From: Terriglobia bacterium
GTDB taxonomy: Bacteria > Acidobacteriota > Terriglobia > Terriglobales > SCQP01
Direction: 5' to 3'
Assembly (NCBI GenBank): GCA_021323595.1
Contig: JAJPKR010000031.1
Span: 13,599 to 77,598 of the forward strand
Length of the DNA stretch: 64,000 nt
In this document: positions 8,703-33,621 of the stretch, one piece after another
Position numbering within the stretch: position 1 is the stretch's first letter
How the letters are laid out: every line of letters starts with the position of its first letter
The notes under the pieces: model-generated
What the model was told of the DNA's origin: nothing
The model's input: the letters and a program-made list of their open reading frames with translations, nothing else
Databases searched by the model: none
Translations under genes and position numbers: made by a program

Positions 8703-10127
8703 TTAACAGCGCTCCTCGGCGCTCCACAAAGTTGTCGGCCAGCGGCGGTAATTGCCCAAGGCTTCGGCGATGGCCGCCGCCGCGCGGCCATGATTGATCG
8801 CGACATGATGTTCGAAGCCTTCACGGCAAACGAAGTGCAAAAGTTTCTGCAAGCGCGGAATGCGCGCCACGCCGAAGCCGCCGAAGCTCTTGGGGCGGTC
8901 GGCGGTGATTTCGCCCTCGCCGGCATAAGCGCGCAGGCGGCCGCCGGCGTCGTCGGTGGTAATCCGGCAGAAGCTGATGGGGCCGGCGGCCAGCGGCCCG
9001 ACGATGGTGCCGAAGGTATTCTCCTTGCCCACCGTGCCGGCAATGATCTCTTGAAAGTGCATCTCCGCTTCCGCGAAGAAGCTCTTGGGCAGGTTGGAAC
9101 AGTGGAAGAGGACCGCGGCGTCGGGATCGTCGCCGTAGTTGTTGTTCCAATCCACGATGGCGCTGGGGCCGCCGGTGGCCAGCTGCAGCACGTGCATGGC
9201 GAGCATCCCGGTGACATCGGTCTCGCAGGCGCTCGGCAACAGCGACTCCGACATCATGCTCATCAGCGTGCAGGGCGCGATGCCGAAGTACTCCTCGAGC
9301 GCGGTCCAGCATTGGATGGAGGTTCCGGCCAGGCCGTTGGCGGCCATCCAGGCGTCGAGCACGGCGCCGAATTTGGCCATTTTCAAGAGCGCGGGCTCGG
9401 GCACGGCGCGCTGCGGAATGTAGCCGCGAATCGCGGCCAGCTTGGCTCGCACGCCCGGCTCGTCGTCGCCCAGGCGGCGCACGCGGCCCAGCACTTCCGA
9501 GAGATCCAGGGGCTCGACGGTGATGCCCTCGCGTTCGAGCAGCTTTTCGCTGAAGCGCACGGTATTAAACGCGGCCGGACGCGCGCCGACGATGCCCACG
9601 CGCAGGCCGCGCAGACCGCGCACGATGCGGCAGGTCGCGGCGAATTTCGCGAGGTCCGCGCGAAAGGCCTCGCTCGCCGGCGGGACGGTATGGCGCTCGG
9701 TGAGCGTGAAGGGAATGCCGTACTGGACCAAGTTATTGCAAAGCGAGATCTTGCCGCAGAAGCTGTCGCGACGGCGGTCAATCAGCATTTGACCGGGCTC
9801 GTCGGGATAGGCGTGCACCAAGACCGGCACGTCGAGGCCGGCCAAGCGGATGGCGTCGGCGGCGGCGCGCTCATCGCCGAAATTGGGAAGCGTCACGATG
9901 ACGCCGGCGATGTCCTCGCGGTGCGCGCGAAACAGCGCGGCGCAGCGGCGCGCGTCCTCGAGCGAACCCACGGCGCCCTCCGGCGTGGCGGTGGCGTCGA
10001 GGCAAACGACGCCGTAGCCGTGCTCCTTGAGCACGCGCAGCATCTCTTCGCGGCCGGCGCGGACGAGCTGCGCCGGAAAAAAGCCGCGATTCCCCACCAG
10101 CAAAGCGAAAGTAGTCGGCAAAGGCAT
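8703..10127 (-). CDS. L-fucose-isomerase-like sugar isomerase; likely non-canonical L-arabinose isomerase
   Basis: 474 aa. N-terminus FALLVGNRGFFPAQLV...TLPNFGDE...DSFCGKISLCNNL is typical of the FucI-like isomerase family. It sits in an operon with araB and araD where araA would be expected. Confidence 0.75.
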   Translation of the reverse strand: MPLPTTFALLVGNRGFFPAQLVRAGREEMLRVLKEHGYGVVCLDATATPEGAVGSLEDARRCAALFRAHREDIAGVIVTLPNFGDERAAADAIRLAGLDVPVLVHAYPDEPGQMLIDRRRDSFCGKISLCNNLVQYGIPFTLTERHTVPPASEAFRADLAKFAATCRIVRGLRGLRVGIVGARPAAFNTVRFSEKLLEREGITVEPLDLSEVLGRVRRLGDDEPGVRAKLAAIRGYIPQRAVPEPALLKMAKFGAVLDAWMAANGLAGTSIQCWTALEEYFGIAPCTLMSMMSESLLPSACETDVTGMLAMHVLQLATGGPSAIVDWNNNYGDDPDAAVLFHCSNLPKSFFAEAEMHFQEIIAGTVGKENTFGTIVGPLAAGPISFCRITTDDAGGRLRAYAGEGEITADRPKSFGGFGVARIPRLQKLLHFVCREGFEHHVAINHGRAAAAIAEALGNYRRWPTTLWSAEERC

Positions 10128-10148
10128 GAGGGATTCAGTCGGCGTGGG

Positions 10149-10817
10149 TTATTGTCCGTAGGCGGTATGGTAGCGCTGCCACCACTTTTGTACTTCCTGG
10201 CGCGGCAGCGGCTCAGGCTGACCCAACAGTAAGGCCAAGTGACACGTCTTAGCAACGTCTTCGAGCATGACCGCGGCCTTGAGCGCGGCGGTGGGCGTGG
10301 GGCCGAACGCGAAGGCGCCGTGGTGCGCGAGGAGCACGGCGGGCGCTTGATTGCGCGCCGCCACCAGAGCGGCGCCGATGGCGTCGCCCTGATTGTCAAC
10401 ATACGGCGCGCAGGGAATTTCGGGGCCGAATTCATCCGCCATGGCGGTCAGATAGGCGGGCAGGGGACGGCGAAGCAGCGCGAAGGCCGTCGCGTAATTG
10501 GAGTGAGTGTGGACGATGCCGCCAAGATCGGGACAGTGGCGGTAAAGGTAAAGATGGTGCGGCAGGTCCACGGACGGTTTCCAGCGGCCGGCCACGCGCC
10601 TCCCATCCAGATCCACGATCGCCAGGTCTTCCGGCCGCAGGCGGTCGTAGTCCATGCCGCTCGGCTTGATGGCGACGAGACCGCGGGAGCGATCGATGCC
10701 GCTGGCATTGCCGCTATGCATGGTGACCAGCCCGGCGCGATGAATGCCGCGATTGGCAGCCCACACTTCCCGGCGCAGCGCGGCGGGAAACGCGGCTGAG
10801 CGGGCGCGCGGGCTCAT
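10149..10817 (-). CDS. araD: L-ribulose-5-phosphate 4-epimerase (class II aldolase/adducin family)
   Basis: Motifs MHSGNASGIDR, VHTHSNYATAFA and HHGAFAFG. ATG 10817 overlaps the araB stop (ATGA). The track's longer ORF start (10889) lies inside araB. Confidence 0.85.
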   Translation of the reverse strand: MSPRARSAAFPAALRREVWAANRGIHRAGLVTMHSGNASGIDRSRGLVAIKPSGMDYDRLRPEDLAIVDLDGRRVAGRWKPSVDLPHHLYLYRHCPDLGGIVHTHSNYATAFALLRRPLPAYLTAMADEFGPEIPCAPYVDNQGDAIGAALVAARNQAPAVLLAHHGAFAFGPTPTAALKAAVMLEDVAKTCHLALLLGQPEPLPRQEVQKWWQRYHTAYGQ

Positions 10818-12568
10818 GAGGCGGCCCCTTGGATGCGAGCGCGGGCAGGGCGGCGCCGGGCGGGTGCGGCGGCCGCCTGGGAGCGGCACTCGTCGCGCAG
10901 GGCTTTGAGCCGCTTCATCACGAGCGAGCCGCCGCGGCCAAAGTAGTCGTGCAGCGCCCGATATTCCTCGAACAGCCGGTCATACGTTGCCTGCGCCGCC
11001 GGCCGGGGACGGTAGACGCGCCGCTCCAAGGAAGCCATGGCTTGCGCCGCCGCCTGGATCGAGGCGTACCCGCCCGCCGCCGGCCCCGCCGCCACGGCTG
11101 CGTGCAAGGCGGCCCCCAACGCGGAGGTCGTTTGCGGGTAGCGCGGCAAACGAATCTCGCGGCCGGTGACGTCGGCATAGATTTGCATCAAGAGCTGATT
11201 TTTTTCCGCCAGCCCGCCGCAGGCGTATAGGGCCTCGATCGCGACGCCCTGGGATTCGAAGGCGGCAATGATCTGGCGGGTGCCGAACGCGGTGGCTTCG
11301 ATCAAGGCACGGTAGATTTCTTCGCTGCGCGTCTCCAAGCCGAAGCCGACCATGAGACCGGAGAGGCCGGCGTCCACCAGCACCGAGCGGTTGCCGTTCC
11401 ACCAATCCAACGCGAGCAAGCCGGAGGCGCCGGGGGGCACGGCGGCCGCGCGCCGTTCCAGCCAGTCGGCAAGGGAAACGCCGGCGCGCCGCGCTTCGCG
11501 TTCCAGGGCGGCAGGAACGGCGCGATGGAAAAACCACGCGAAGATATCGCCCACCGCCGATTGCCCGGCCTCGTAACCCCACAAGCCGGGAATGACGCCG
11601 TCCTGCACGACGCCGCACATTCCCTCCACCCAGCGGCGGCTTTCGCCCAGCACCAGGTGGCAGATGGAAGTGCCCATGACCATGACCATGCGGCCGGGTG
11701 CGGTCACGGTGCAGGCCGGCACGGCGCCGTGCGCGTCCACATTGCCGATCGCCACCGGCGTGCCGGCGCGCAGGCCGGTCTTGCGCGCCCAATACGGCGT
11801 GAGCCCGCCGGCGCAGGCGCCGAGAGGATAGTAAGCGGTCGGCACGCGCGTCCCGATTACGTTTTCCAGCGAGGGATGCAAGGCGCGAAAGAAGCCCGGC
11901 GAGGGAAACGCGCCCCCTTCGCGGCGGGCGATCCACATCGCCTTGTAGCCGGCGGCGCACGCACTGCGCTTTTCGGCGCCGCACAATTGCCAGACGATCC
12001 AGTCGGCGGCCTCGATCCAACGCTCGATGGCGTCATAGACGCTCGGGTTTTCTTCGACGACCTGCAGAAGCTTGGCGAAGAACCATTCGGAGGAATAGCG
12101 GCCGCCATAGACGCGAACAAACTCTTCCTGGCGGGCGCGGCCGATTTCCGTGATCCGGTCGGCCTGGGGCTGGGCGGCGTGGTGCTTCCACAGCTTGACC
12201 CAGGCATGCGGTTCGCGCCGCCAGGCCGGCAGAAAGCAGAGCGGCGTGCCGTCGGCGGTGGTCGGCAGGGGCGTCGAACAGGTGAAGTCGGTCGCCAGGC
12301 CGATGACGCGCTCGCCGCGGACGCCGGCTTGCCGCAGCGCCCGCGGCACGCCCTTCTCGAGCACCCGCAAATAATCGCGAGGATTTTGCAGCGCCCATTC
12401 GGCGGGCAGGGGGCGGCTGCCGGGCAGCGGCAGCCGCTCGGAGATCACGCCGTCGGCATACGGCACCGTGGCGGAGCCGGCCATGACGCCATCCCGGACC
12501 CGCACCACTACCACCCGGCCCGATTCAGTGCCGTAATCGATGCCGAGGACAAAGGCATCGCGGGCCAT
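10814..12568 (-). CDS. araB: Ribulokinase (FGGY carbohydrate kinase)
   Basis: 584 aa. N-terminal GIDYGTESGRVVVV and FGGY C-terminal motifs (CGGLAEKNQLLMQIYADV). ATG 12568 overlaps the upstream stop. Confidence 0.85.
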   Translation of the reverse strand: MARDAFVLGIDYGTESGRVVVVRVRDGVMAGSATVPYADGVISERLPLPGSRPLPAEWALQNPRDYLRVLEKGVPRALRQAGVRGERVIGLATDFTCSTPLPTTADGTPLCFLPAWRREPHAWVKLWKHHAAQPQADRITEIGRARQEEFVRVYGGRYSSEWFFAKLLQVVEENPSVYDAIERWIEAADWIVWQLCGAEKRSACAAGYKAMWIARREGGAFPSPGFFRALHPSLENVIGTRVPTAYYPLGACAGGLTPYWARKTGLRAGTPVAIGNVDAHGAVPACTVTAPGRMVMVMGTSICHLVLGESRRWVEGMCGVVQDGVIPGLWGYEAGQSAVGDIFAWFFHRAVPAALEREARRAGVSLADWLERRAAAVPPGASGLLALDWWNGNRSVLVDAGLSGLMVGFGLETRSEEIYRALIEATAFGTRQIIAAFESQGVAIEALYACGGLAEKNQLLMQIYADVTGREIRLPRYPQTTSALGAALHAAVAAGPAAGGYASIQAAAQAMASLERRVYRPRPAAQATYDRLFEEYRALHDYFGRGGSLVMKRLKALRDECRSQAAAAPARRRPARARIQGAAS

Positions 12569-14112
12569 CAGCTCAGCCGAACCTCCAGGGCCACGACCGC
12601 CAGGCCGGGCACCGCTACCCGCAGACCGCGGCGGCCGGCCGTGACGGGATGCGGGCGCGGCACGATGCGGTTGGGCTGATCGAAGGTGTTGCAGGCATTC
12701 CAGTCCGGGTCGTGGAGGATTTGCGCCCGGCCCTCAGCCGCGAGGCCGCCGAAGTCGCAGTCCACCTGCACCACGCCATCCGGGCTGGGATTCACCAGAG
12801 TCACGAGCATCTGCCGGTCCTGGCGCGTGGCCGAGGCGGAGAGCGGCGCAGCGCCGCCGCCTTCCGCCTGCGTTTGCACGGAATCGCGGCCGCGGTGCGG
12901 CTTGAACATCGCGAAGACGTAATAGGTGGGCGTGCGAATGCAGCGCTCGCCATCGGGACCGTCGGTGAGCAACAGCGACTGCAAGACGTTCACCATCTGC
13001 GCGATATTGCACATGTACAACTTGTCCGCCTGGCGATTGAAGATATTGAGGCCAAGGCCGGCGGCGGCGGCGCCGCGCTGGGTATCCTGCTGCCACAAGC
13101 GGCCGTACCGCGCTTCGACCTCCGGGCCGGGACGATCCCAAACGCCCCACTCGTCGAGCACCAACCCGACCTGGGCGCCGCCGAAGTAGCCGTCGAGGAT
13201 GCTCCGTTGCTGCCCGATCGCCGCTTCCACGCGATCGAAGATGGCGAGCTGCTTGACCACTTGTTCGCGCGTGAATTGCGTGGGCGGGGCATCGCCGCCC
13301 TCGTAAAAGTGCATGGAGATGCCGCCGGGACGGGTGCGCCCCAGGCCGTCCATGAGCCCGCGCGTCCAGCGAATGTCATTGCCGTTGGGGCCGCTGGCGA
13401 TCATGACCGGGCGCACGCCGCCGAAGGAGTGGAGGAAGTTCGCATAGCGGCGGTAGAGCGTCGCGTATTCCTCCGGACGCATGTCGCCGCCGCAGCCCCA
13501 GCTCTCGTTGCCGATGCCCCAGTAGCGGACGTTAAAGGGCTGGGGCGAGCCGTTGCGCGCCCGCTCCTCGGCGAGCGTGCTGCCGCTGGGATAGTTGCAA
13601 TACTCCATCCAGTCGCGCAGTTCTTCGGGACTGCCGCTGCCGACATTCCCGGCCAGATAGGGCTCGGCGCCGATCTTGCGGCAGAGGCCGATGAACTCGT
13701 GCGTGCCGAAGCTGTTGTTATCGACGACGCCGCCCCACCAAATGTTCACCGTGTGCGGGCGGTCGGGACCGACGCCGTTGCGCCAATGGTAATCGTCGGC
13801 ATAGCAGCCGCCGGGCCAGCGCAAGACGGGAATACCCAAAGCGGCCAAATATTTGATCGCGTCGGCGCGATAACCTTCGTCGTTAGGAATGCGTGAGTCG
13901 CGGCCGACCCACAGCCCGCCGTAGATGCAAGCGCCGAGATGCTCGGCGAACTGACCGTGCAACTCGGGGCGGACTCGGCCGATGATCCGGTCGGGAAACA
14001 GGCGCAGCCGCGCGGTCGCGCCGGCCGCCTGCGTCCAGCCGCGCCGGGGCAACGCCAGCCCCGCCGCGGCCGCCGCGCCCGCCGCGAGAAACATTCGACG
14101 ATCCATGGACAT
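12568..14112 (-). CDS. alpha-L-arabinofuranosidase, GH51, Tat/Sec-exported
   Basis: Signal MSMDRRMFLAAGAAAAAGLALP. GH51-like LRWPGGCYADDYHWRNGVGP, FGTHEFIGLC, catalytic-region GIGNESWGCGG. Start set to ATG 14112; ATG 14106 is also possible. Confidence 0.85.
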   Translation of the reverse strand: MSMDRRMFLAAGAAAAAGLALPRRGWTQAAGATARLRLFPDRIIGRVRPELHGQFAEHLGACIYGGLWVGRDSRIPNDEGYRADAIKYLAALGIPVLRWPGGCYADDYHWRNGVGPDRPHTVNIWWGGVVDNNSFGTHEFIGLCRKIGAEPYLAGNVGSGSPEELRDWMEYCNYPSGSTLAEERARNGSPQPFNVRYWGIGNESWGCGGDMRPEEYATLYRRYANFLHSFGGVRPVMIASGPNGNDIRWTRGLMDGLGRTRPGGISMHFYEGGDAPPTQFTREQVVKQLAIFDRVEAAIGQQRSILDGYFGGAQVGLVLDEWGVWDRPGPEVEARYGRLWQQDTQRGAAAAGLGLNIFNRQADKLYMCNIAQMVNVLQSLLLTDGPDGERCIRTPTYYVFAMFKPHRGRDSVQTQAEGGGAAPLSASATRQDRQMLVTLVNPSPDGVVQVDCDFGGLAAEGRAQILHDPDWNACNTFDQPNRIVPRPHPVTAGRRGLRVAVPGLAVVALEVRLS

Positions 14113-14141
14113 TGCTAGGCTCCCGCTGCGCGACGCCCGGC

Positions 14142-14169
14142 GCGCAAACGATTGGGCAAACGCAAGCTT
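14142..14169. promoter_or_regulatory. Operator half-site-like repeats (GCGCAAACGATT, CGCAAGCTT) just upstream of the GH51-ara operon
   Basis: GCGCAAACGATT (14142-14153) differs by one base from GCGCAAGCGATT, which flanks the LacI-gene operators (30465-30476 and 30597-30608). Confidence 0.3.
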
Positions 14170-14273
14170 ACGCTGATTCCCGGGCGGCGGGTCAAGCAAA
14201 AACTCGCGCCAGTTCGGCGGCGGCGCGCCGCCGCGCCGCCACCGGCGGGCACCGCCACAAACGGTTGCGCGTT

Positions 14274-14287
14274 CGCTTGCGCAAGCG
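14274..14287. promoter_or_regulatory. Perfect 14-bp palindrome CGCTTGCGCAAGCG; putative LacI-family operator in the ara/SSS divergent region
   Basis: Identical to the palindrome at 30448-30461 next to the LacI-family gene. Lies in the 345-bp divergent intergenic region between the GH51-ara operon and the SSS transporter. Confidence 0.6.
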
Positions 14288-14377
14288 GTTGTACCAAGCC
14301 CACAGGGACACTTTGCGACAGGCGGCGGACAGAGTGAAACGCGCCGAAGATTTCCGCCGCGCGCGGCGGATTTTTCC

Positions 14378-14405
14378 TTGACAGCGATGGCGGCGCGTGT
14401 ACGAT
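14378..14405 (+). promoter_or_regulatory. Sigma70-like promoter for the SSS transporter
   Basis: TTGACA (14378-14383), 16-nt spacer, TACGAT (14400-14405), about 50 nt upstream of ATG 14458. Confidence 0.4.
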
Positions 14406-14457
14406 AACGCCTGAACGCATCGCGTTCGCGCCCCGACGGCTATGGGCGCGCGCCCCC

Positions 14458-16275
14458 ATGCCCCTCCTTCCCGCGCTTCTCGTCGGCACGCACCTGGCGC
14501 ACCTGGCGCCGGTAGACCTCGCAATCGTCGTTATCTATTTCGCGGCCGTGCTGGGTCTCGGCCTTTATCTCAAGAAGCGCACCGACACCGGCGAGGAGTT
14601 CTTTCTCGCGGGGCGCGGCATGTCCGCCTGGGTGGCCGGGCTGAGCTTCTTAGCCGCCAACCTGGGCGCGCTCGAACTCATGGGCTGGGCGGCCAGCGCC
14701 TACGAGTACGGCATTTTGGCGGTGCATTGGTACTGGATCGGCGCCATCCCGGCGATGGTCTTCCTCGCCCTGGTGATGATGCCGTTCTATTACATCTCCC
14801 GCACCCATTCGGTGCCCGGCTATCTGCGCCTGCGCTACGGCGAAGCAACGCGCTCGCTCAGCGCCGTCTGCTTTGCCGGCATGACCGTGTTGATGTCGGG
14901 CATCAACATGTTCGCCATGGCCAAGGTCATGGAGGTCGTGCTCGGCTGGAATCTGCACTTCTCCATCTGGGTCTCCTCAATTACCGTGGCGATCTACGTC
15001 GCCTTGGGCGGATTGACCTCGGCCATCTTGAACGAGGTCCTGCAATTTTTCTTGATCTGGTGCGGCGCGCTGGTAATTCCCATCGTCGGCCTGATCGAGG
15101 CCGGCGGCTGGACGGCGCTCAAGCAGCAGATCATCCATAACTTCGGCGCCAGCTACGTTCACGCCTGGACGACCCTGGGCAGCTTCCGCGCCAACCCCAT
15201 GGGGATTCACTGGACCGGCATCGTCTTCGGCCTGGGCTTCGTGATCTCGTTCGGCTACTGGACGACCGATTTCTTGGTGGTGCAACGCGTCATTGCCGCC
15301 AAGGATTTGCGGGCGGCGAAAATGGCGCCCATCATCGGCGCCTATTTCAAGATGGCGGTGCCGCTGATCGTGATCTTGCCGGGCTTGATCGCACTGGGGG
15401 TGCTGGGCACGGGCGCGCATCCGGTCCACCTCGTCGCGGAGTCGGTCGCCAAGACGGGCCAACCGACCTACAACGACGTCCTGCCGCTGATGCTGGTGCG
15501 CTACGCCGGCCCCGGGCTGATGGGGCTGGGCATCACCGCCTTGATTGCCGGGTTCATGTCGGGCATGGCCGGCAACGTCAGCGCCTTTGCCACCGTCTGG
15601 ACCTACGATATCTATCGCCCCGCGGTGCGCAAGCTGCGCGGGCTTGCCGCGATCGAGGATGTCGCGCCCATAGCGGCGGCCGCCGGCGCCGCGGGCGAGG
15701 GCGTCACGGTGGGAAGCAATGCGGAAGCAAGCGGCGATCTGCCCGACCGCCATTACTTGGCGATGGGGCGCTGGAGCACGATCGTCGGGGTGCTGGTGAG
15801 CGTAGGCACCGCCTATTTGGCGATGCAGTTCAACAGCATCATGGATTACGTCCAGGCGCTCTTCAGCTTCTTCGTCGCACCCCTGCTCGGCACCGTGCTG
15901 CTCGGCATGCTCTGGAAACGCGCCACCAAGGCCGCCGGCTTCTGGGGGCTGCTGGCGGGGACTTGCGCGTCCATCGCCATGTGGGCGTGGGCGCGGCTCG
16001 ACCCGGCGGCCCTGTCGGTGGTGGCGCTCTCGCGTTATGCCAAGCCCATGGCCGACGATATGTACCGAGCGCTGTGGTCGTGGATCGTGTGCGTCGTCGT
16101 TACCGTGGTCGTCAGCCTGTGCACCGCGCCGCGTCCGGTGGGCGAGCTGCGAGGCTTGGTCTACGGCTGCACGCCCCTGCCGAAGGAGAGCGAGTATGCC
16201 TGGTGGCAGCGGCCGCTCTTCTGGGGCATTTTGGTGCTGGTCATCTTGGTCTGGCTGAACTGGATTTTCCGATGA
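14458..16275 (+). CDS. Sodium:solute symporter (SSF/SGLT-like) family transporter
   Basis: 605 aa, about 13-14 TM helices. N-terminal FLAGRGMSAWVAGLSFLAANLGALELMG is typical of SSS transporters. Confidence 0.9.
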   Translation: MPLLPALLVGTHLAHLAPVDLAIVVIYFAAVLGLGLYLKKRTDTGEEFFLAGRGMSAWVAGLSFLAANLGALELMGWAASAYEYGILAVHWYWIGAIPAMVFLALVMMPFYYISRTHSVPGYLRLRYGEATRSLSAVCFAGMTVLMSGINMFAMAKVMEVVLGWNLHFSIWVSSITVAIYVALGGLTSAILNEVLQFFLIWCGALVIPIVGLIEAGGWTALKQQIIHNFGASYVHAWTTLGSFRANPMGIHWTGIVFGLGFVISFGYWTTDFLVVQRVIAAKDLRAAKMAPIIGAYFKMAVPLIVILPGLIALGVLGTGAHPVHLVAESVAKTGQPTYNDVLPLMLVRYAGPGLMGLGITALIAGFMSGMAGNVSAFATVWTYDIYRPAVRKLRGLAAIEDVAPIAAAAGAAGEGVTVGSNAEASGDLPDRHYLAMGRWSTIVGVLVSVGTAYLAMQFNSIMDYVQALFSFFVAPLLGTVLLGMLWKRATKAAGFWGLLAGTCASIAMWAWARLDPAALSVVALSRYAKPMADDMYRALWSWIVCVVVTVVVSLCTAPRPVGELRGLVYGCTPLPKESEYAWWQRPLFWGILVLVILVWLNWIFR

Positions 16276-16508
16276 GCGAACCGAGTCCGCGTCATGAGGC
16301 CGTCCCGGTCTGGATCTATATCGCGGGATTGCTGCTGGTCTATGGCTTGATGGTGCTGGGCGCCGGCATCGAGCAATGGAACCATCCGCCCGACATCGCG
16401 CTGCCGCAGATCCACGCCACGTTCTGGGGCGGCGTGCTTCTCACCGTGCTGAGCGGCTTTTTCCTCGCGTTTTCCGTACTGCAGCACAAGCGGAACCGGC
16501 GTTCATAG
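16272..16508 (+). CDS. Small two-TM membrane protein translationally coupled to the SSS transporter
   Basis: ATG 16272 overlaps the SSS stop (ATGA). 78 aa with two hydrophobic helices (VWIYIAGLLLVYGLMVLGAG; FWGGVLLTVLSGFFLAFSVL). Confidence 0.55.
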   Translation: MSEPSPRHEAVPVWIYIAGLLLVYGLMVLGAGIEQWNHPPDIALPQIHATFWGGVLLTVLSGFFLAFSVLQHKRNRRS

Positions 16509-18074
16509 CCCGGCGCGCGTCCACTCGCCGTCCACCAGCCGCCAAATGCCGAGCGGATTGGCGTCGCGCAATTCCTGCGGCAAGAGAAATTCCGGAGCGT
16601 CTTGGTAGCACACCGGCCGCGCGAAGCGAAAAATGGCGCGCGTGCCTACGGACGTCGCGCGGCTGTCGGACGTCGCCGGGTACGGGCCGCCATGCACGAT
16701 CGCATGCGAAACCTCGACCCCGGTGGGATAGCCATTGACGATCAGCCGGCCGGCTTTGGTTTCCAGCAGCGCGACCAGGCCGGCGTTGCGGCGCAGATCG
16801 GTCTCGGTGGCGTGCAGCGTGGCGGTGAGCTGGCCGGGAAGGCGCCGCGCAGCCTCCAGCGCCTCGCGCTCGTCGCCATAGCGGACGAGCAGCAATGCCG
16901 GTCCGAAGAGTTCTTCTTCGAGTTTCGGATTGGCGGCCAGGGTGGCGGAGGACACCTGAAACAGGGCGGTCGAGATCGGCGCGGCTGACTTGGCGAGAAG
17001 CTCGACGCCGGCGTGCCCAGCGCGCTCATCCACGCCCCGGCAGTAGGCTTCGGCGATCCCGCGGGTGAGCAGCGTAGCGGGCGGCGTGGTCTGAATCCGT
17101 TGCGCCAGCTCGCGCGTGAAGCTCGTCGCCGCCGTGCCGGCGCCGGGCAAAAAGACGAGTCCCGGTTTCGTGCAGAACTGTCCGGCGCCGAGCGTCGCCG
17201 ACGCGTGCAAGCCGGCGGCTAACGCCGCGCCGCGTTCGGCCAGCGCCTCGGGCAGCACGAAGACAGGATTGACGCTGCCCATCTCGGCAAAGACCGGAAT
17301 CGGCTCGGCGCGCGCCGCCGCCAGATCCATCAGCCGGCGGCCGGCGGCGAGCGAGCCGGTAAAGCCGACGGCGCGTATCGCGGGATGGCGCACCAGCGCG
17401 GCGCCGATTTCGACCCCGGAATCGAACAGCAGCGAAAATACCCCGTCTGGAGCGCCGGAGGCGCGTGCCGCCTCGAGGATCGCCTCGGCCGCCAGCTCGC
17501 TCGTTCCCGGATGAGCGGGATGCGCCTTGACGATGACAGGATTGCCGGCCGCCAGCGCCGAAGCGGTATCGCCTCCGGCGACGGAAAACGCCAAGGGGAA
17601 ATTGCTGGCGCCGAAGACTGCGACGGGTCCGAGCGGGCGCAAGCAGGAGCGCAAATCGGGCCGGCGCGGCTGATTCTCCTGCGCGGGATGCGAGCGATCG
17701 ATGCGCGCGTCCACCCAAGACCCTTCCTCGGCGAGCGCGGCGAAGAGGCGCAATTGATTGGCAGTGCGGCGGAGTTCGCCGCGCAAGCGCGGCTCGGGCA
17801 GCGCCGTTTCCTGGCCGGCGCGCGCGACCAGCGCATCGCCGCGCGCCTCGAGACGCTCGGCACAAGCGCGCAAGAAGGCGCCGCGAGCCGCGCCACTCGC
17901 GGCGCGGTATTCAGCCGCCGCGGCTTCCGCGAGCGCCGCCGCGCGCTCCACTTCGGAGTCCGTCGCCGATACGAAAGCGGGCTCGATCGCCACGCCTCGC
18001 GCGGGATCCCACGCCCGAAATCGCGTTCCCGACTCCGCGCCCAGGGTTTGGCCGATGCGCGAACGGCCGGTCAT
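16503..18074 (-). CDS. NAD(P)+ aldehyde dehydrogenase, alpha-ketoglutarate-semialdehyde dehydrogenase-like
   Basis: 523-aa ALDH-family protein (FTGSLAAGRRL, EMGSVNPVF, GQFCTKPG). Its N-terminal pattern and length resemble KGSADH. It abuts the DapA-family gene with no gap. Confidence 0.8.
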   Translation of the reverse strand: MTGRSRIGQTLGAESGTRFRAWDPARGVAIEPAFVSATDSEVERAAALAEAAAAEYRAASGAARGAFLRACAERLEARGDALVARAGQETALPEPRLRGELRRTANQLRLFAALAEEGSWVDARIDRSHPAQENQPRRPDLRSCLRPLGPVAVFGASNFPLAFSVAGGDTASALAAGNPVIVKAHPAHPGTSELAAEAILEAARASGAPDGVFSLLFDSGVEIGAALVRHPAIRAVGFTGSLAAGRRLMDLAAARAEPIPVFAEMGSVNPVFVLPEALAERGAALAAGLHASATLGAGQFCTKPGLVFLPGAGTAATSFTRELAQRIQTTPPATLLTRGIAEAYCRGVDERAGHAGVELLAKSAAPISTALFQVSSATLAANPKLEEELFGPALLLVRYGDEREALEAARRLPGQLTATLHATETDLRRNAGLVALLETKAGRLIVNGYPTGVEVSHAIVHGGPYPATSDSRATSVGTRAIFRFARPVCYQDAPEFLLPQELRDANPLGIWRLVDGEWTRAGL

Positions 18075-18992
18075 CTAGGCCCTCGCCATCCGCTGCGCCG
18101 CCATTACCGTGTCGCGCTGCTTCAGCGCTTGGCGGATGGTGCGGCGCGCGGCGTCGAGCTCTTCGCCGACCAAGCTCAGCCGCGGCGGACGAACGCGCGA
18201 ACTGCCCATGCCGGCTTCCTCCTGGATGAGCTTGATGAGCTGCACGAACTTCGGGAGCGTGTCCATGCGCAACAGCGGCAGCAGCCAGCGATACAACTCC
18301 CAAGCGCGCTCCCATTGCCCCTGGCGGCCGGCGTTCAAAAGCGCCACGGCCTCTTCCGGCATCGCGTCCGCCAGCCCGGAGACCCAGCCCACCGCCCCCA
18401 TGGCCACGCCCTCGAGCACGACATCGTCCACGCCCACGAAAATCGCCAAACGATCGCCGCACAGAGCGCGAATCGCGGTGACGCGGCGCGCATCGGTGCT
18501 TGACTCTTTCACCGCTTGCAGATTCGCATGCTCTTCTGCCAATTCGACGATGTGGGCGGGCAAGAAATCGGCGCCGTACGCGACAGGATTGTTGTACAGC
18601 ATCGACGGCAAGGGCGTGGCGCGCAAGACTGCGCTCACGTGCGCTTTCAGCTCGCGCCAATCGCCGGGATACACGTACGGCGGGAGAATCATCAGCCCGT
18701 CGCAGCCCTCCGCCTCGGCGGCTTTCGCCAAAGCGACCGCTTCGCGCGTGCCCAGCGCGGAAATCCCCGCCACCAGCGGCGCGCGCTCGAGCGCGCGCCG
18801 GCAGGTCTGCAAGATCCGCTTTTTTTCTTCGAACGAAAGCGTGGCGGCTTCGCCCAGCGACCCGAGAGCCACAACGCCGGTGCACCCGGCCTCGATCACT
18901 CGCCGGCAATGGTCGGCTACGAAGTTGTAATCTGGATCAAAGTGCACATCGAACGCGGTGGTAAGTGCGGGCCAGACGCCCTGCCAGTCCAT
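18075..18992 (-). CDS. DapA/NAL-family (dihydrodipicolinate-synthase-like) lyase/dehydratase
   Basis: Start ATG 18992 (MDWQGVWPALTTAF...). DHDPS-family motifs GVVALGSLGEAATLS and YNNPVAYG. The track ORF extends to 19217, but that part crosses the AT-rich divergent promoter. Confidence 0.85.
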   Translation of the reverse strand: MDWQGVWPALTTAFDVHFDPDYNFVADHCRRVIEAGCTGVVALGSLGEAATLSFEEKKRILQTCRRALERAPLVAGISALGTREAVALAKAAEAEGCDGLMILPPYVYPGDWRELKAHVSAVLRATPLPSMLYNNPVAYGADFLPAHIVELAEEHANLQAVKESSTDARRVTAIRALCGDRLAIFVGVDDVVLEGVAMGAVGWVSGLADAMPEEAVALLNAGRQGQWERAWELYRWLLPLLRMDTLPKFVQLIKLIQEEAGMGSSRVRPPRLSLVGEELDAARRTIRQALKQRDTVMAAQRMARA

Positions 18993-19041
18993 CAAAATGG
19001 TTCCTCCCAGGCACGGCAGAGGAATATTATATCCAGTATTC

Positions 19042-19287
19042 GTGTCGCGCACTATATCTATCCTTATTGATCGGCAAGTGGTGTCCGTGCCAGCGGGCAC
19101 GACCGTGGCAGCCGCGCTCATGGAGCGGGAATATGCGTGCCGGCGTTCCCGATCCGGCGAACTGCGCGGTCCGTTGTGCGGCATGGGGATCTGCTTCGAG
19201 TGCCGCGTCACCATCAACGGCCAGCCGCACCGGCGCAGCTGCCAGATTCTTTGCGAGGACGGAATGGCCGTCAGAACCGGAGACTAG
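19042..19287 (+). CDS. (2Fe-2S)-binding small subunit (HcnA / opine-oxidase / D-hydroxyproline-dehydrogenase gamma-like)
   Basis: 81 aa from GTG 19042. Motifs GELRGPLCGMGICFECRVTING and RSCQ are typical of the 2Fe-2S subunit family. Confidence 0.7.
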   Translation: MSRTISILIDRQVVSVPAGTTVAAALMEREYACRRSRSGELRGPLCGMGICFECRVTINGQPHRRSCQILCEDGMAVRTGD

Positions 19288-19310
19288 ACGGGTTCGCGGC
19301 GGATTCGGCA

Positions 19311-20630
19311 ATGAGCGCAGCACCTTGGGATTTGTTGGTCGTGGGTGGAGGACCGGCAGGACTGGCGGGTGCAGCCTGCGCGGCGGAAGCCGGGATGCGC
19401 GTGGCTTTGCTCGACGACAATCTGGCCCTTGGCGGCCAGATTTGGCGCGCGGAAGCCACCCGCGACGTCAACACCGCCGCGGCCAGGTGGATCCGGCGAG
19501 CGGCCACCGCCGGCGCCAAGATGGTGACTCGCGCGCGCGTTTTCGACGCGCCCGCCCCCGGGGTGCTGGCGGCTGAGATGAACGAAGGCGACGAAGAGCG
19601 CCGGATCGAGTTGCGCTACCGCCAATTGCTGGTGGCCACGGGCGCGCGCGAACGCTTTCTTCCCTTTCCCGGTTGGACCCTACGCAATGTGCTGGGCGCC
19701 GGCGGATTGCAAGCGATGGTCAAGTCCGGACTGCCGGTCGCCGGCAAACGCGTCGTGATCGCCGGCAGCGGCCCGCTGCTGGCGGCGGTCGCTGCATACC
19801 TGCGCCATCATGGCGCCGAGATTGCGCTGCTGTGCGAACAAGCGCCGGCCTCGCAGACCGCCGGACTCGCGCTAGCGCTGGCGAAATACCCCGGAAAATG
19901 GGCACCGGCGGCGGCGCTGGTCTGGCAACTCGCCGGCGTGCGGCGCGCGACGAACTGCTGGCCGATTGCGGCTGAAGGCGATGAGGTGCTGCGCGCCGTG
20001 CGCGTGCTGCGAAACGGCCGCGAAACGCGCATCGCCTGCGACTATCTCGCCTGCGGCTTTCATCTCGTCCCCAACCTCGAATTGCCGCTGCTGCTCGGGT
20101 GCCGGACCCGCGGCGGCTACATCGAAATCGACGAGGCGCAGCGCACATCCGTGGCAAACGTCTTTTGCGCCGGCGAGCCGACCGGGATCGCGGGCGTAGA
20201 CGCGGCGCTGATCGGCGGCCAGATCGCCGCGGCGGCTGCCGCCGGCCGGCCGATTTCGGCGCGCCAGAAGCGCGCGCGCCGCCGCTGGCATCGGTTTGGG
20301 ATGGCGCTCGACCGGGCTTGCGCGCTCCGTGCCGAGTTGCGCTTGCTGGCGGGCCCCGAGACCTTGGTTTGCCGCTGCGAGGACGTCGCCTATGCGCGCC
20401 TGGCCTCGTGCCGCGATTGGCGCGACGCGAAATTGCAGACGCGCTGCGGTATGGGTCCGTGCCAAGGCCGCGTCTGCGGCCCAGCGACGCGCTTTCTGTT
20501 CGGCTGGCAGGACGTCTCGATCCGTCCGCCGCTGTTTCCGGTCCCGGTCGCTTCGCTCGCCGCGGCCGCGACGCCGGACACCGGCGCCGAGCCGGCGTTC
20601 GAGGCGGTGGCCGGGAAAAACGATTCATAA
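19311..20630 (+). CDS. FAD/NAD(P)-binding pyridine-nucleotide-disulfide oxidoreductase with C-terminal BFD-like [2Fe-2S] motif (HcnB/OoxA-like)
   Basis: ATG 19311. Dinucleotide folds DLLVVGGGPAGLAGA and VVIAGSGPLLAAVA; C-terminal CRCEDV...RCGMGPCQGRVC. Confidence 0.8.
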   Translation: MSAAPWDLLVVGGGPAGLAGAACAAEAGMRVALLDDNLALGGQIWRAEATRDVNTAAARWIRRAATAGAKMVTRARVFDAPAPGVLAAEMNEGDEERRIELRYRQLLVATGARERFLPFPGWTLRNVLGAGGLQAMVKSGLPVAGKRVVIAGSGPLLAAVAAYLRHHGAEIALLCEQAPASQTAGLALALAKYPGKWAPAAALVWQLAGVRRATNCWPIAAEGDEVLRAVRVLRNGRETRIACDYLACGFHLVPNLELPLLLGCRTRGGYIEIDEAQRTSVANVFCAGEPTGIAGVDAALIGGQIAAAAAAGRPISARQKRARRRWHRFGMALDRACALRAELRLLAGPETLVCRCEDVAYARLASCRDWRDAKLQTRCGMGPCQGRVCGPATRFLFGWQDVSIRPPLFPVPVASLAAAATPDTGAEPAFEAVAGKNDS

Positions 20631-21778
20631 TGGACGCGACGGGATTCGTGGAGTCGCCGCATCAAGCGCGTGGGGTGCGCATCTTCCTGGCTGGGTGCGC
20701 GATGGTCGCTTTGGGCGTGGTCCTTGCGTTCAGCGCCGGCTTTGCGCAAATGGCGCCCTCCGCGCCCGCCACGCCGGAAGCGGAGCTGCAAGCGGGAATC
20801 GCGCTGACCCGCCAGGGGCGCTTTGCCGCCGCCATTCCCCATCTTGAGGCCGCGCGCGGCCGCGTGCAAGACGAGTTCGCCGCCGATTTCGATTTGGCGC
20901 TGTGTTATGTAGCGACCGGCGAGAACGAAGGCGCGATCGCGTTGCTGCGGCCTTGGAGCAATCAGGTTGGCCATGCCGCGCAGGTCCATGATTTGCTGGC
21001 GCAGGCGCAGATCGGCGCGGGCCATGCCGCCACCGCGCGCGCCGAGCTGAAGGCAGCGTCGGCCGCCGCCCCGAACGACGAACGGCTCTATGTGCTCGCA
21101 GCCGACGCCTGCGCCGACCACCACTGGCCCGAACTGGGACTCGAGGTCGTCGCCGTCGGACTCGAGCATCTTCCCCGCTCGGCGCGGCTGCACTACGAAC
21201 GCGGCGTGTTCCTTTCCGAACTCCAGCAATCGGATGACGCACGGCAAGAGTTCGCGCGGGCGCGGGCGCTCGATCCGCACGGCGCCATCGGCGCGCTGGC
21301 GGCCAGCCAGGCGGCGCTGCTGGAAGGCCGGCCGGAGGCGGCGGCCGCGGCGGCGCGAACCGGGCTGGCAACGGCGCCGCACAACTACATCCTGCAAACT
21401 CTGCTCGGCCAGGCGCTTTTGAAGAGCGGCGCGCAGCCGGGCCAACAGGCCTTCACCGACGCCCGGGCGGCACTCGTCGAAGCAGTCGCCGCCCGGCCCG
21501 ATTTCGCGCCCGCGCAACTCGCGCTCGGCCAAGCCGAATTGCTGGAGGGCCATGCGCGCGAGGCAGTGGCGCATTTGGAAGCGGCGCGCCGCTTGGATCC
21601 CAATGCTACCGCCTGCTACGCACTGCTGGCGTCAGCGTACCGGCAAATGGGCGACATGGCGCAAGCGCGGGCGGCGCTGGCGGCGCTGGAGGCCGTCAAC
21701 CAGCACCAAGTGGCCCGGTATAAGTCCGCACCGGCGAGCTACGTCGGAGCCGCCCCGGCTGGCGGGACTCCACATTAA
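20630..21778 (+). CDS. TPR-repeat protein, membrane-anchored or secreted
   Basis: ATG 20630 overlaps the preceding stop (TAATG). N-terminal hydrophobic helix, then Ala/Leu-rich TPR-like repeats. Confidence 0.7.
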
Positions 21779-21785
21779 TGAGCGG

Positions 21786-23504
21786 ATGCGAATGAGCTTT
21801 CGAGACGACCGGCGCGCGCGCTGCTCGCGGCGGCGCTTCTTGGGGACGGCGGGGCTGGCCGGTGCGGGAGCGTTGCTGCCGCTCCCGTGGGCGCGCGCCA
21901 TCGCCGCGACGGGAGGCGCCTTTGCGGAAGTGCCGGCCGCCGCCAGCGGCATCCATTGGCGGCACGTGGCGGGCATTTCGCCGCAGATGTACGAACCGGA
22001 GACGAACGGCGCCGGCTGCGCGTTTCTCGATTACGACGGCGACGGCTGGATGGACATTTACTTGGTCAATAGCGGCCGTTCGGATTTCTATACGCCTCCG
22101 CATTCACTGCGCAACGCTCTGTATCGCAACAATCACGACGGCACCTTTACCGACGTAACCGAGAAAGCGGGCGTATCCGGCGGCGGCTACGGCATGGGCG
22201 TGGCCGTCGGCGATTATGACGGCGACGGCCATCCCGATCTCTACGTGACGCAATATGGCCGCAACATTCTTTACCACAACAACGGCGACGGCACCTTTAG
22301 CGACGTCACCGAACGCGCCGGCGTGGCGGCGCCGGGCTGGTCCACGAGCGCCGTCTGGTTCGATTACGACAACGACGGGCGGCTGGATCTTTTCGTCTGT
22401 CAATTCGCGAAATTCGATCCCAAGATCTGGTGCGGCGACAAGCTCACGCATCAGAAGATTTACTGCCGGCCGAACGTGTATCCATCCATGCCGAGCTGGC
22501 TGTTTCACAACAACGGCGACGGCACCTTCACCGACGTCAGCAAGAGCAGCGGCATTGCCGCCTCGCTGGGCAAGGCCTGGGGCGTGGTGGCCGCCGATGT
22601 GAACAACGACGGCTGGATGGACCTATTCGTGGCCAACGACACGGTCGCGAACTTTCTGTTCATGAACCATCGCGGCCGTTTCGAGGAAACCGGCGCGCTG
22701 GCGGGCGTGGGCTACAGCGAATTCGGGCTGGCGCGCTCGGGCATGGGCGTGGATGCCGGCGACTACGACCAAGACGGCTGGCTCGACCTTTTCGTCTCGA
22801 ACATCGACCACGAAATGTTTGCGCTCTACCGCAACCAGCACGACGGCACCTTCAGCGACGCCGCCGCCAGCGACGGCATCGCCGCCGCCACGCTGATGCT
22901 GAGCGGCTGGGGCGTCAAATTCTTCGACTTCGACAACGACGGCAATCCCGATTTGATGCTCGTCAACGGCCATCCCGAGCCGCAGATCGCGCGGCTGGCG
23001 CACGGCGTGAGCTACGACGAGCGGCCGCTGCTGTTTCGCGGCGACGGCCGCGGCGGGTTCGTCAATGTCAGCGCCGGCAGCGGCGCGGTATTTCAGCAAG
23101 CCTTCGCGGGGCGCGGCCTGGCAGTCGGCGACTTCGACAACGATGGAGCGGTGGACGCGCTCATTTCCGTCAATGACGCCGCGCCCATCCTCTTGCGCAA
23201 CCAAGCGGCCGCGGGCCGCCATTGGCTCGGCGTGCGGCTGATCGGCAAGAAGAGCAACCCGGACGCGATCGGCGCCAAGCTGACCTATCGCGCCGGCGAC
23301 CTCGAGCGCCATCGCTGGCAAGTAGGCGGCGGCAGCTTCCTTTCGGCGCATGATCCCCGCCTCGTGCTGGGCCTTGGCGCGCGGCGCAAGCTCGACTGGC
23401 TGGAGGTGCGCTGGCCCCAGCCGGGCGGTTCGATCCAGCGGTTCACCGAACTCCCTGTCGACCGCTACATCACGATCACGGAAGGCGACCCAGGCTGGAA
23501 GTGA
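21786..23504 (+). CDS. CRTAC1-family protein (FG-GAP/VCBS repeats + ASPIC/UnbV domain), Tat signal
   Basis: Tat-type [16 protein letters not shown]. Repeated [36 protein letters not shown] and [10 protein letters not shown]; C-terminal [18 protein letters not shown]. Confidence 0.85.
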
Positions 23505-31686: not shown

Positions 31687-33621
31687 ATGTCCCACGCCAA
31701 TCGCCGCCAGTTCCTTGCCACTCTTGCCGCCGGCGCCGCCGCCGTGCCGCTGGTCAAGACCCGGGTCTTCGGCCAAGACCCGGTTATGGACGCCGCCGCC
31801 GCCCATCGCGCCAACTACAAGGAGGCCGTCGCCTGGCGCGCGCAACCCTTCCCCATGGGACGGGTGCGGCTGGCACCGGGGGTGTTCCAGAAGAACATGG
31901 AGGCCAACCGCGAATACTTGCTGACGCTGCCCACCGACCGCCTGGCCCATATGTTCCGGGTCACCGCCGGCCTGCCCTCCTCGGCGCAGCCCTTCGGCGG
32001 CTGGGAAGCGCCGGACGTCGAGTTGCGCGGCCATTTCACCGGCGGGCACTATCTTTCCGCCTGCGCGCTGCAATATGCCGGCGCCGGCGACGACGAGGTC
32101 AAGCAGCGCGGCGAAGCGCTGGTGGCGGCGCTCGCCGAATGCCAAGCCAAGCATCCCGACGGGTATCTCAGCGCCTTTCCCGAAACCTTTTTCGACCGCC
32201 TGCGCGACGGCCAGCCGGTGTGGGCGCCCTTCTACACCATTCACAAGATCATGGCCGGGCACCTCGACATGTATGTCCACTGCGGCACGCAACAGGCGCT
32301 CGACACCTGCGAGAAGATGGCCGGCTGGGTGGCGCATTGGATCGAGCCGCTCAGCGACGCCCACGTGCAGCGGGTGCTCGAGACCGAATACGGAGGCATG
32401 GGCGAGGTGCTCTACAATCTCGCCGCCGTCACCGGCAAACGCCAATACATCTATCTCGGCCATCGCTTCGACAAGCGCGCCTTCTTCGATCCGCTCTTGG
32501 CGCATCGCGACGAACTCAAAGGCCTGCACGCCAACACGCATATCCCCCAAGTGATCGGCGCCGCCCGCGCCTACGAGCTGACCGGCAATCATGATTCGCG
32601 GCAGATCGCCGAGTATTTCTGGCGCGAGGTCGTGAGCGAGCGCACCTATTGCACCGGCGGCACCAGCAACGACGAGCACTGGGAAGGCGATCCCGGCCAC
32701 CTGCGCATCGGTCCCGCGAGCGAGGAGTGCTGCTGCGGCTACAACATGCTCAAGCTCACCCGCCATGTCTACGGCTGGTCGGGCGATCCGCGCATGATGG
32801 ACTACTACGAACGCACGCTTTTCAATAGCCGGCTGGGCACCCAGGAAACGCACGGGCTGAAGATGTATTACCTGCCGCTGGCCGCGGGATATTGGAAGAC
32901 GTTCAACACGCCGTTCAACTCGTTCTGGTGCTGCACCGGCACCGGCGCGGAAGAGTTCGCCAAATTCGCCGACACCATTTACTTCCACGACGATGACGGC
33001 CTCTACGTGAACTTGTTCCTCGCCTCCGATCTCGACTGGCCGGAAAAGGGGCTGCGGTTGCGGCAGCGGACGAACTTCCCCGACGAGCAGGGCACGACGC
33101 TGACGATCCGCGCCGAGCGGCCGACCCAGCTCGACATCAATCTGCGCATTCCTTACTGGGTAGCCGACGGCGGCGCGGTCAAGGTCAACGGCGAAACCCT
33201 GCCGGCGTTCGCCAGCCCGGGCAGCTATCTCACGCTGCGGCGGGCCTGGCATGACGGCGACCGTATCGAGCTGAAGCTGCCGATGGCGGCGCATGTGGAG
33301 TCGTTGCCGGGCGACGAGACCTTGCAGGCGTACATGTATGGCCCGATCGTTTTGGCCGGACAGATGGGCGACGAAGGCTTGACGGAGAAAATGATCTTCG
33401 GCGGCTACGGCCCGCGCGCGCGGCCGACGCCGCCGCCCGAGATCGCCGGCACGGAGGCCTTGGCGGCGCTCAAGCCGGGCAGCGGCGGGCCGTTCGATTT
33501 CCAGCTCTTCACCGCGGGGCACGGGCCGATGGCGATGATGCCGCTCAACCAGACCTTCAACCAGCGCTACGCCGTGTATTTCAAGCTGAACCGGCCCACG
33601 TTCTTCGGCCGCCGCGCCTGA
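31687..33621 (+). CDS. GH127 (DUF1680) beta-L-arabinofuranosidase-like glycoside hydrolase, Tat signal
   Basis: Tat RRQFLATLAAGAAAV. DUF1680-type segments GHFTGGHYLSA, WAPFYTIHKIMAG, EYGGMGEVLYNL and the Cys motif FWCCTGTGAEEF. AGGAGGG lies upstream of ATG 31687. Confidence 0.85.
   Translation: MSHANRRQFLATLAAGAAAVPLVKTRVFGQDPVMDAAAAHRANYKEAVAWRAQPFPMGRVRLAPGVFQKNMEANREYLLTLPTDRLAHMFRVTAGLPSSAQPFGGWEAPDVELRGHFTGGHYLSACALQYAGAGDDEVKQRGEALVAALAECQAKHPDGYLSAFPETFFDRLRDGQPVWAPFYTIHKIMAGHLDMYVHCGTQQALDTCEKMAGWVAHWIEPLSDAHVQRVLETEYGGMGEVLYNLAAVTGKRQYIYLGHRFDKRAFFDPLLAHRDELKGLHANTHIPQVIGAARAYELTGNHDSRQIAEYFWREVVSERTYCTGGTSNDEHWEGDPGHLRIGPASEECCCGYNMLKLTRHVYGWSGDPRMMDYYERTLFNSRLGTQETHGLKMYYLPLAAGYWKTFNTPFNSFWCCTGTGAEEFAKFADTIYFHDDDGLYVNLFLASDLDWPEKGLRLRQRTNFPDEQGTTLTIRAERPTQLDINLRIPYWVADGGAVKVNGETLPAFASPGSYLTLRRAWHDGDRIELKLPMAAHVESLPGDETLQAYMYGPIVLAGQMGDEGLTEKMIFGGYGPRARPTPPPEIAGTEALAALKPGSGGPFDFQLFTAGHGPMAMMPLNQTFNQRYAVYFKLNRPTFFGRRA

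Follow-up and report, generated by a model that had tools for sequence, protein, structure and literature searches.

The closest described counterparts of the locus reported here are bacterial pathways for hydroxyproline breakdown. The L-hydroxyproline pathway of Pseudomonas aeruginosa and Azospirillum brasilense comprises the epimerase LhpA, the subunits beta, gamma and alpha of a heterotrimeric D-hydroxyproline dehydrogenase, the deaminase LhpC and an alpha-ketoglutarate semialdehyde dehydrogenase (KGSADH). The beta, gamma and alpha genes lie there in tandem, and beta is the catalytic subunit (PMC4575208). Streptomyces coelicolor SCO6289-6293, with the GntR regulator HypR, likewise encodes beta (DAO), gamma (Fer2_4), alpha, a DHDPS-like deaminase and an epimerase, and KGSADH may lie apart from this operon (PMC6608401).

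The window, by which we mean the whole stretch of 64,000 nucleotides analysed, carries genes of four of these families. An aldehyde dehydrogenase gene (16503-18074, minus strand, 523 aa; PF00171), probably encoding a KGSADH of the NADP+-type subfamily, abuts a DHDPS-family gene for a predicted LhpC-like deaminase (18075-18992, minus strand, 305 aa; PF00701). Divergent from them, across a gap of only 49 bp, are the genes for a 2Fe-2S gamma subunit of the D-hydroxyproline-dehydrogenase type (Fer2_4; 19042-19287, plus strand, 81 aa, GTG start; PF13510, E 6.5e-21) and an alpha subunit, an FAD oxidoreductase with a C-terminal Cys cluster (19311-20630, plus strand, 439 aa; PF07992, SoxA-like), whose stop codon overlaps the start codon of a downstream TPR gene. 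The left flank, which is the host locus of the insertion (8703..16508; Pfam/NCBIfam), holds a PF02952 sugar isomerase, presumed to be L-arabinose isomerase, together with AraD, ribulokinase, a GH51 arabinofuranosidase, a sodium:solute symporter and a small membrane gene.

The preliminary description had recognized a DapA-family gene next to a KGSADH-like gene, divergent from gamma- and alpha-type subunits, and the domains and Cys motifs confirm this arrangement. It had also remarked that the window lacks a beta subunit and an epimerase; the genome search for LhpA and LhpB homologues that it proposed recovered both, each as a single copy, on contig C48 only. The C48 epimerase (C48:28379-29341) has both catalytic cysteines, C92 and C242 (Cys/Cys, PA1268-like), and with PRK13970, a model for 4-hydroxyproline epimerases, it reaches 442 bits, equal to the cut-off of 442. 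It matches PDB 4J9W (E 8e-128) and PA1268/2AZP (E 3e-119), which belong to the characterised 4HypE cluster 2 (PMC4113996). The FAD beta-subunit gene (C48:29338-30462) encodes GxGxxG at G12-G17 and the FMN motif R302-x-W304 (as defined in PMC4575208), invariant in 22 orthologues. Because the epimerase and beta subunit occur on C48 of the same genome, the pathway gene set is complete, and the suggestion of an incomplete hydroxyproline pathway falls away. The two genes appeared to be absent because the limits of the window exclude C48. The apparent anomaly of a dehydrogenase lacking its catalytic subunit thereby dissolves, since the genes most probably belong to a known pathway spread over two loci.

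We put at roughly 0.88 the probability that the window holds four-sixths of a split-operon trans-4-hydroxy-L-proline pathway, with reactions, subunit assembly and co-regulation inferred as follows. The C48 epimerase would convert trans-4-hydroxy-L-proline to cis-4-hydroxy-D-proline, which the flavin/FeS dehydrogenase composed of the C48 beta subunit and the window alpha and gamma subunits would oxidize to pyrroline-4-hydroxy-2-carboxylate. From this product the DHDPS-family enzyme would form alpha-ketoglutarate semialdehyde by deamination, and alpha-ketoglutarate would then be produced by the aldehyde dehydrogenase.

Several features of the DHDPS-family protein accord with a deaminase. The possibility that it is a true DapA was rejected: it scores 161 bits against TIGR00674 dapA, under the cut-off of 206, and has G-S-L-G instead of the DapA motif G-T-T-G, and the true DapA of this genome sits on C49 (327 bits). 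Tyr133 and Lys162 are retained, Tyr133 in all orthologues, and the G-S-x-G and G-V-D motifs are common to this protein and Sinorhizobium meliloti HypD (5CZJ), the single characterised deaminase compared. In a tree that left out P. aeruginosa LhpC and the Azospirillum L-2-keto-3-deoxyarabinonate (L-KDA) dehydratase, the protein groups with HypD, apart from true DapA (SH-aLRT 99), but HypD is a long branch and the join is tentative. In relatives, its orthologues are found inside epimerase-beta-gamma-alpha clusters. The aldehyde dehydrogenase has 1EYY and 3V4C as top PDB matches (E about 1e-135), and its catalytic E264 and C301 motifs are intact. Gene content, motifs and orthologue clusters support the hydroxyproline identification of the LhpC-like deaminase, KGSADH, gamma and alpha.

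The gamma and alpha subunits retain their cofactor motifs. The gamma Cys pattern C46-x4-C51-x2-C54-x12-C67 agrees with the family pattern C-x4-C-x2-C-x11/12-C and is invariant in 21 orthologues. The alpha subunit has GxGxxG at G12-G17 and the Cys cluster C354-x-C356-x22-C379-x4-C384, plus C389, with C354, C356, C384 and C389 invariant in 23 orthologues; the Cys spacer is 22 residues here and 15-20 in PMC4575208. Compared with one variant strain, which keeps the gamma start codon and reading frame, pN/pS is 0.06-0.25 for all six genes, which are under purifying selection. When the beta subunit from C48 was modelled together with alpha and gamma, the complex scored 0.89 (best control 0.02), with at least 94% contact agreement between runs and partner pLDDT of at least 90; of 80 solved pairs 58 attain the mark used, and of 110 mismatched ones 2 do. 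This fold model favours alpha-gamma-beta binding, and its pass may stem from likeness to the solved structure 1Y56.

The beta gene lies on C48 and the gamma-alpha pair on the window contig, C65, an arrangement seen in no other of the 50 genomes that have gamma; in all 49 other genomes with a gamma match, beta is at most 2.4 kb away. Contig geometry places the beta locus at least about 48 kb from the window locus. The tandem beta-gamma-alpha order, a feature of layout and not of catalysis, is not found in this genome, while most relatives have all six orthologues in one cluster. Misassembly of the genome bin could be suspected in a 65-contig assembly, but is extremely improbable: the two halves turn up again, in 18 and 20 contigs that come from several assemblies and more than one assembler, both are present in the variant strain (pS about 0.1-0.2), and the longest exact word common to the three junction regions does not exceed 10 nt. 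Assemblies of ENA, JGI, Logan and NCBI together supply 18 contigs with the identical DHDPS-family protein, and over whatever length they cover, the best 8 of these 18 places match the window gene order. The split layout is genuine and not an assembly artefact. It could also be taken to mean that alpha and gamma act without this beta subunit, as the two-subunit variant proposed in the preliminary description, a module for electron transfer, or that they pair with a different DAO-family protein. Their transcription apart from beta here, their detachment from beta inside the clusters of genomes G075 and G148, and the published subunit exchange of opine dehydrogenase (PMC4575208) fit such a reading. 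We nevertheless judge it very unlikely, given that beta, the subunit that carries catalysis, is present in every sampled genome with gamma, that the orthologous beta gene here is intact, under purifying selection and encodes a protein predicted to dock on the window alpha, and that, beyond beta, the genome has just two full-length DAO-family genes, ThiO and an L-2-hydroxyglutarate-oxidase-like gene.

A different question is whether the substrate is hydroxyproline at all. The four genes sit within an arabinose locus, and the family of the predicted deaminase also includes L-KDA dehydratase (PMC9795676), which would with KGSADH give the second oxidative arabinose branch considered previously. 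In L-KDA dehydratase, however, Gln143 replaces the family Tyr, and the catalytic Glu173 lies two residues past Lys171 (PMC9795676); the window protein has Tyr133, and Ser164 at Lys+2 (K162-E163-S164), a position deduced from the published numbering and not from an alignment with the Azospirillum sequence. No L-arabinonate dehydratase was found in the genome (97.6% complete), whose sole PF00920 (IlvD/Edd-family) gene is a true IlvD at 684 bits (cut-off 618) that scores 414 bits as an arabinonate dehydratase (cut-off 882). The orthologues also track hydroxyproline genes even without arabinose genes nearby, and the arabinose locus of the sister genome G001 lacks the four genes. The arabinose reading fails because the Gln/Glu catalytic residues and the arabinonate dehydratase are absent, and little credence can be given to it. 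A small probability attaches to the same six genes serving another substrate or middle step, such as D-proline, another hydroxyproline isomer or a lyase, for example 4-hydroxy-2-oxoglutarate aldolase. The DHDPS-family protein is only 28-32% identical to HypD, a Granulicella orthologue bears the electronic RefSeq term 'glyoxylate catabolic process', and proline-racemase-family enzymes may be promiscuous (PMC4113996). Characterised deaminases themselves share only ~32-33% identity with S. coelicolor SCO6292 (PMC6608401). Against another substrate or step stand the close relationship of the C48 epimerase to characterised 4-hydroxyproline epimerases, the combination of epimerase, DAAO, DHDPS and ALDH by which the 4-hydroxyproline route is recognized in the literature (PMC4113996), and the weak match of human HOGA (E 7e-21, among the matches listed).

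The arabinose neighbourhood appears to be a recent setting for the hydroxyproline genes. In G001 the arabinose genes have the same order, with nothing between the small gene and the TPR gene; this flank is uninterrupted there, and therefore the insertion of the four genes appears to be recent. The deaminase groups with its same-genus G001 counterpart (96/90) and the epimerase likewise (96/96), which fits rearrangement within the lineage. Genus g7 shares the divergent layout, and horizontal arrival from it was considered but is unsupported, given this deaminase grouping and a host-like GC3. The tree that addressed a g7 origin of the four genes did not resolve the aldehyde dehydrogenase branch. 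A metagenome scan with the alpha subunit gave no matches.

Within the 49-bp divergent gap lies an operator-like palindrome, GGATA-WWW-TATCC with one mismatch (19022..19034). The pattern, derived from three sites in G001, has three matches in the genome under study, two of which precede the two hydroxyproline loci, the one on C48 lying at C48:28350. The window site ranks second genome-wide by PWM, with single PWM scores within the shuffle range, is unchanged in the variant strain and overlaps -10-like hexamers; a sigma-70 scan of the gap found no consensus promoter. Both loci thus carry the same operator-like palindrome, a presumptive regulator-binding site. One GntR-family regulator, probably encoded at C62:111601-112269, would act on it before both loci, and the common site may keep the separately encoded subunits coordinated. 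A similar site upstream of a TonB receptor (window ~30482) was rejected as the same operator and is not counted, because its score of 14.6 is in the shuffle range and it coincides in G001 with the receptor's own -10 box.

The window also encodes a GH146-like beta-L-arabinofuranosidase (31687..33621, plus strand; PF07944, E 6.7e-110), which is matched far better by 5OPJ (E 2.6e-100) and 8K7X (E 7e-60) than by 3WKW (E 9e-8) and so appears to resemble structures of the GH146 type more closely than GH127 HypBA1. In 9 of 35 genomes its orthologue has hydroxyproline genes no more than 25 kb away, a proximity that suggests feeding on plant hydroxyproline-arabinosides. The arabinose neighbourhood may therefore be meaningful through such compounds and not through a common KGSA route. 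It is a tentative idea, with the odds somewhat against it, that insertion into the arabinose/GH146/TonB-receptor locus was selected, re-assembling a kit for extensin-type hydroxyproline-arabinosides in which sugar and amino acid are both burnt, while the catalytic beta subunit would come from a far-off locus that shares the GntR operator. Among titles and abstract openings, we found no such locus described for Acidobacteria hydroxyproline/proline racemase or GH127-hydroxyproline epimerase clusters. The locus adds a further example, apparently of recent origin, of hydroxyproline genes coming together with those for beta-arabinofuranosidase and arabinose use, here in a lineage that its closest named relatives mark as Acidobacteria-like, and fits putative feeding on plant hydroxyproline-rich glycoproteins.

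Set against known systems, the consulted portions of the accounts of Xanthomonas euvesicatoria XeHypBA1 and Bifidobacterium longum hypBA describe sugar removal only, XeHypBA1 freeing arabinose from Ara-Hyp (PMC6085000, PMC10850190); the window likewise has its GH146-like enzyme and GH51 near hydroxyproline genes, with a putative role on Ara-Hyp. The A. brasilense L-KDA dehydratase has the same fold family and Schiff-base lysine as the window deaminase and also feeds a KGSADH, but differs in the catalytic residues and the arabinonate dehydratase discussed above. The S. meliloti hyp cluster resembles the present genes in its DHDPS-family deaminase and in its ALDH (52.6% identical), but relies on a dehydrogenase of the HypO type, which is not related to the three-subunit enzyme (PMC6608401). 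The S. coelicolor genes form a single operon with a different operator sequence and a collagenase link, whereas the present genes are split and arabinose-linked. The pathway of P. aeruginosa and A. brasilense has the same six families and cofactor motifs, and its epimerase PA1268 is close to that of C48. Its three dehydrogenase subunits are encoded in tandem, whereas here beta stands apart and gamma-alpha lead their own unit, a probable natural case of one flavoenzyme whose subunits, unlike those of 49 relatives, are encoded apart.

The four genes in the window are half of an ordinary trans-4-hydroxy-L-proline pathway that is unusual only in its layout. An aldehyde dehydrogenase gene (ALDH; 16503-18074, minus strand) abuts a DHDPS-family gene (18075-18992, minus strand), and across a divergent gap of 49 bp the plus strand carries a Fer2_4 protein of 81 aa (gamma; 19042-19287) and an FAD oxidoreductase of 439 aa (alpha; 19311-20630). 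The Cys motif of gamma and the C-terminal Cys cluster of alpha are intact, and both are conserved in orthologues. The preliminary description reported no epimerase and no beta subunit, which is correct for the window; its option of an incomplete hydroxyproline pathway does not hold, because a search of the genome (97.6% complete) for homologues finds both on another contig, C48. The sole proline-racemase-family gene (C48:28379-29341) is overlapped by a DAO-family gene (C48:29338-30462). The epimerase has both catalytic cysteines, scores exactly at the cut-off of the 4-hydroxyproline epimerase model (442 bits against 442), and matches 4J9W and PA1268, both characterised epimerases (PMC4113996). 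The beta subunit shares 56-73% identity with the beta genes that stand before gamma in acidobacterial relatives, and its R-x-W FMN motif is retained (PMC4575208). All six pathway genes are single-copy, the remaining full-length DAO-family genes being ThiO and an L-2-hydroxyglutarate-oxidase-like gene. Also on C48 is a short S9-type peptidase remnant (24511-24915; L010 about 6512-6916), in which pieces of the two termini lie close to each other; in the same-genus sister genome the corresponding position holds an intact copy of the gene.

When the window alpha and gamma were modelled with the C48 beta, the complex scored 0.89 (best control 0.02), with runs agreeing in at least 94% of contacts and a partner pLDDT of at least 90. 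That mark is attained by 58 of 80 solved pairs and by 2 of 110 mismatched ones, counts that hold only roughly for this case. Since a like complex has been solved (1Y56; beta E 7e-23), the predicted assembly's pass shows likeness to that complex, not binding by this copy.

Misassembly as the source of the split was rejected, because both halves recur across assemblies with the same neighbours. An identical deaminase was found on 18 contigs and an identical beta on 20 (ENA, JGI, Logan and NCBI assemblies), with the same neighbours at the places listed, and a variant strain shares this layout for both halves. Rough, uncorrected pN/pS counts against that strain were 0.06 for the deaminase, 0.18 for ALDH, 0.19 for gamma, 0.25 for alpha, 0.19 for the epimerase and 0.17 for beta, so that none of the six looks like a decaying orphan. 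The longest exact word common to the junctions is at most 10 nt. The sister genome retains the C48 junction, a BNR/sortilin-type gene divergent from epimerase-beta, but runs on into gamma, and its arabinose locus reads symporter, small gene, TPR with nothing in between; we infer from this that the four genes moved from their earlier places into the arabinose locus in the lineage studied here. The grouping of the deaminase (96/90) and the epimerase (96/96) with the sister fits rearrangement within the lineage; the ALDH and beta trees do not resolve the two genomes.

Gamma matches occur in 50 of the 151 genomes sampled from the order, and only in the present one do beta and gamma lie at separate loci, at least about 48 kb apart judging by their positions in the contigs. 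In the other 49 (hand count) beta lies within 2.4 kb of gamma, 47 in tandem (with beta in two pieces in one) and 2 rearranged inside the cluster. Most other relatives carry a single run, epimerase-beta-gamma-alpha-deaminase-ALDH; Granulicella tundricola also has one run in permuted order, and in a related genus (g7) ALDH and deaminase diverge from epimerase-beta-gamma-alpha. Seven genomes (G087, G104, G109, G131, G141, G142 and G080; loci L094-L100) carry epimerase-beta-deaminase; genome-wide searches of these gave no gamma match, and a search without positive control gave no alpha match in the five checked. They may hold a beta-only version of the same orthologue, the converse of the two-subunit variant proposed in the preliminary description; catalysis by beta on its own is reported (PMC4575208).

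An operator-like palindrome, GGATA-WWW-TATCC, precedes each of three scattered hydroxyproline units in the sister genome (one copy with a mismatch). In the genome studied three sites match it with at most one mismatch: one falls within the 49-bp gap and another stands 28 bp upstream of the epimerase. Since 0-4 matches per genome also turn up after block shuffling, the number of sites is unremarkable and the evidence lies in where they stand. A PWM derived from other genomes places the gap and epimerase sites 2nd and 4th; the site overlaps -10-like hexamers, so its conservation may in part reflect the promoter. Ranks 1 and 3 fall at C45:1983 and 6365 (L092), before two secreted-looking proteins (601 and 758 aa) that are possible further regulon members. 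A GntR gene flanks ALDH in the sister and in genus g7, and its orthologue here (C62:111601-112269; 84% identical to the sister's protein) adds a third location to the system. Palindrome and GntR would coordinate the two hydroxyproline loci.

The four-gene block is flanked on one side by a sodium:solute symporter and a small membrane gene and on the other by a TPR/ASPIC-UnbV run, in a wider locus of presumed arabinose isomerase, AraD, ribulokinase, GH51, TonB receptor, LacI, PF07944 beta-arabinofuranosidase and GH31. TPR genes alternate with FG-GAP/ASPIC-UnbV genes at 20630-26541; the first overlaps the alpha stop codon and so may now be transcribed from the hydroxyproline promoter. After the beta-arabinofuranosidase comes a TAT-exported protein of 609 aa (33709-35538) with no Pfam family beyond the signal, whose homologues (60-69%) adjoin a beta-arabinofuranosidase gene in three other genomes (G004, G008 and G014). 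The PF07944 enzyme is nearer to GH146-type structures, among them 5OPJ (the GH146 enzyme BT0349), than to HypBA1. In plant extensins hydroxyproline bears beta-arabinofuranosides, and the GH146 enzyme XeHypBA1 releases arabinose from arabinosylated hydroxyproline (PMC10850190, PMC6085000). The arabinose neighbourhood may be meaningful through such plant hydroxyproline-arabinosides. Of the 35 sampled genomes that carry beta together with this beta-arabinofuranosidase, 9, from 5 genera, have the enzyme within 25 kb of hydroxyproline genes (hand count; about 1% per genome expected under random placement, with kin not independent and fragmented bins hiding links). In genus g14 the hydroxyproline operon is directly adjoined by arabinose genes; there and in a relative (L093, L103, L104, L105 and L030) arabinose/symporter genes stand directly before beta-gamma-alpha, at the usual epimerase place, and the epimerase is on another contig in all four g14 genomes checked. 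In the genome studied the arabinose-hydroxyproline link appears to be recent.

The identity of the DHDPS-family protein as a putative deaminase draws mainly on gene neighbourhood. An oxidative arabinose branch, as the preliminary description suggested, would need it to be an L-2-keto-3-deoxyarabinonate dehydratase, and this was rejected. The search for an arabinonate dehydratase covered the IlvD/Edd fold family, whose only member in the genome is IlvD and fails the arabinonate dehydratase model. True DapA, with which clustering had been named as the adverse outcome, was likewise ruled out: the protein scores below the model cut-off, and DapA itself is on C49. The tree, with a long-branch warning, groups the protein with the characterised S. 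meliloti deaminase HypD (identified as 5CZJ), with which it shares G-S-x-G and G-V-D. On Rhizobium leguminosarum pRL4 (L069), a DHDPS-family gene, 43% identical, has on one side a GntR gene (60% identity to its counterpart in the hyp cluster of S. meliloti) and on the other a sugar ABC transporter accompanied by an annotated GH127, with an Xaa-Pro peptidase nearby. Whereas L-2-keto-3-deoxyarabinonate dehydratase has Gln143 in place of the family Tyr and Glu173 two residues after Lys171 (PMC9795676), the window protein has Tyr133, Lys162 and Ser164. Taken as a whole, the system is a known pathway in a rare split layout.
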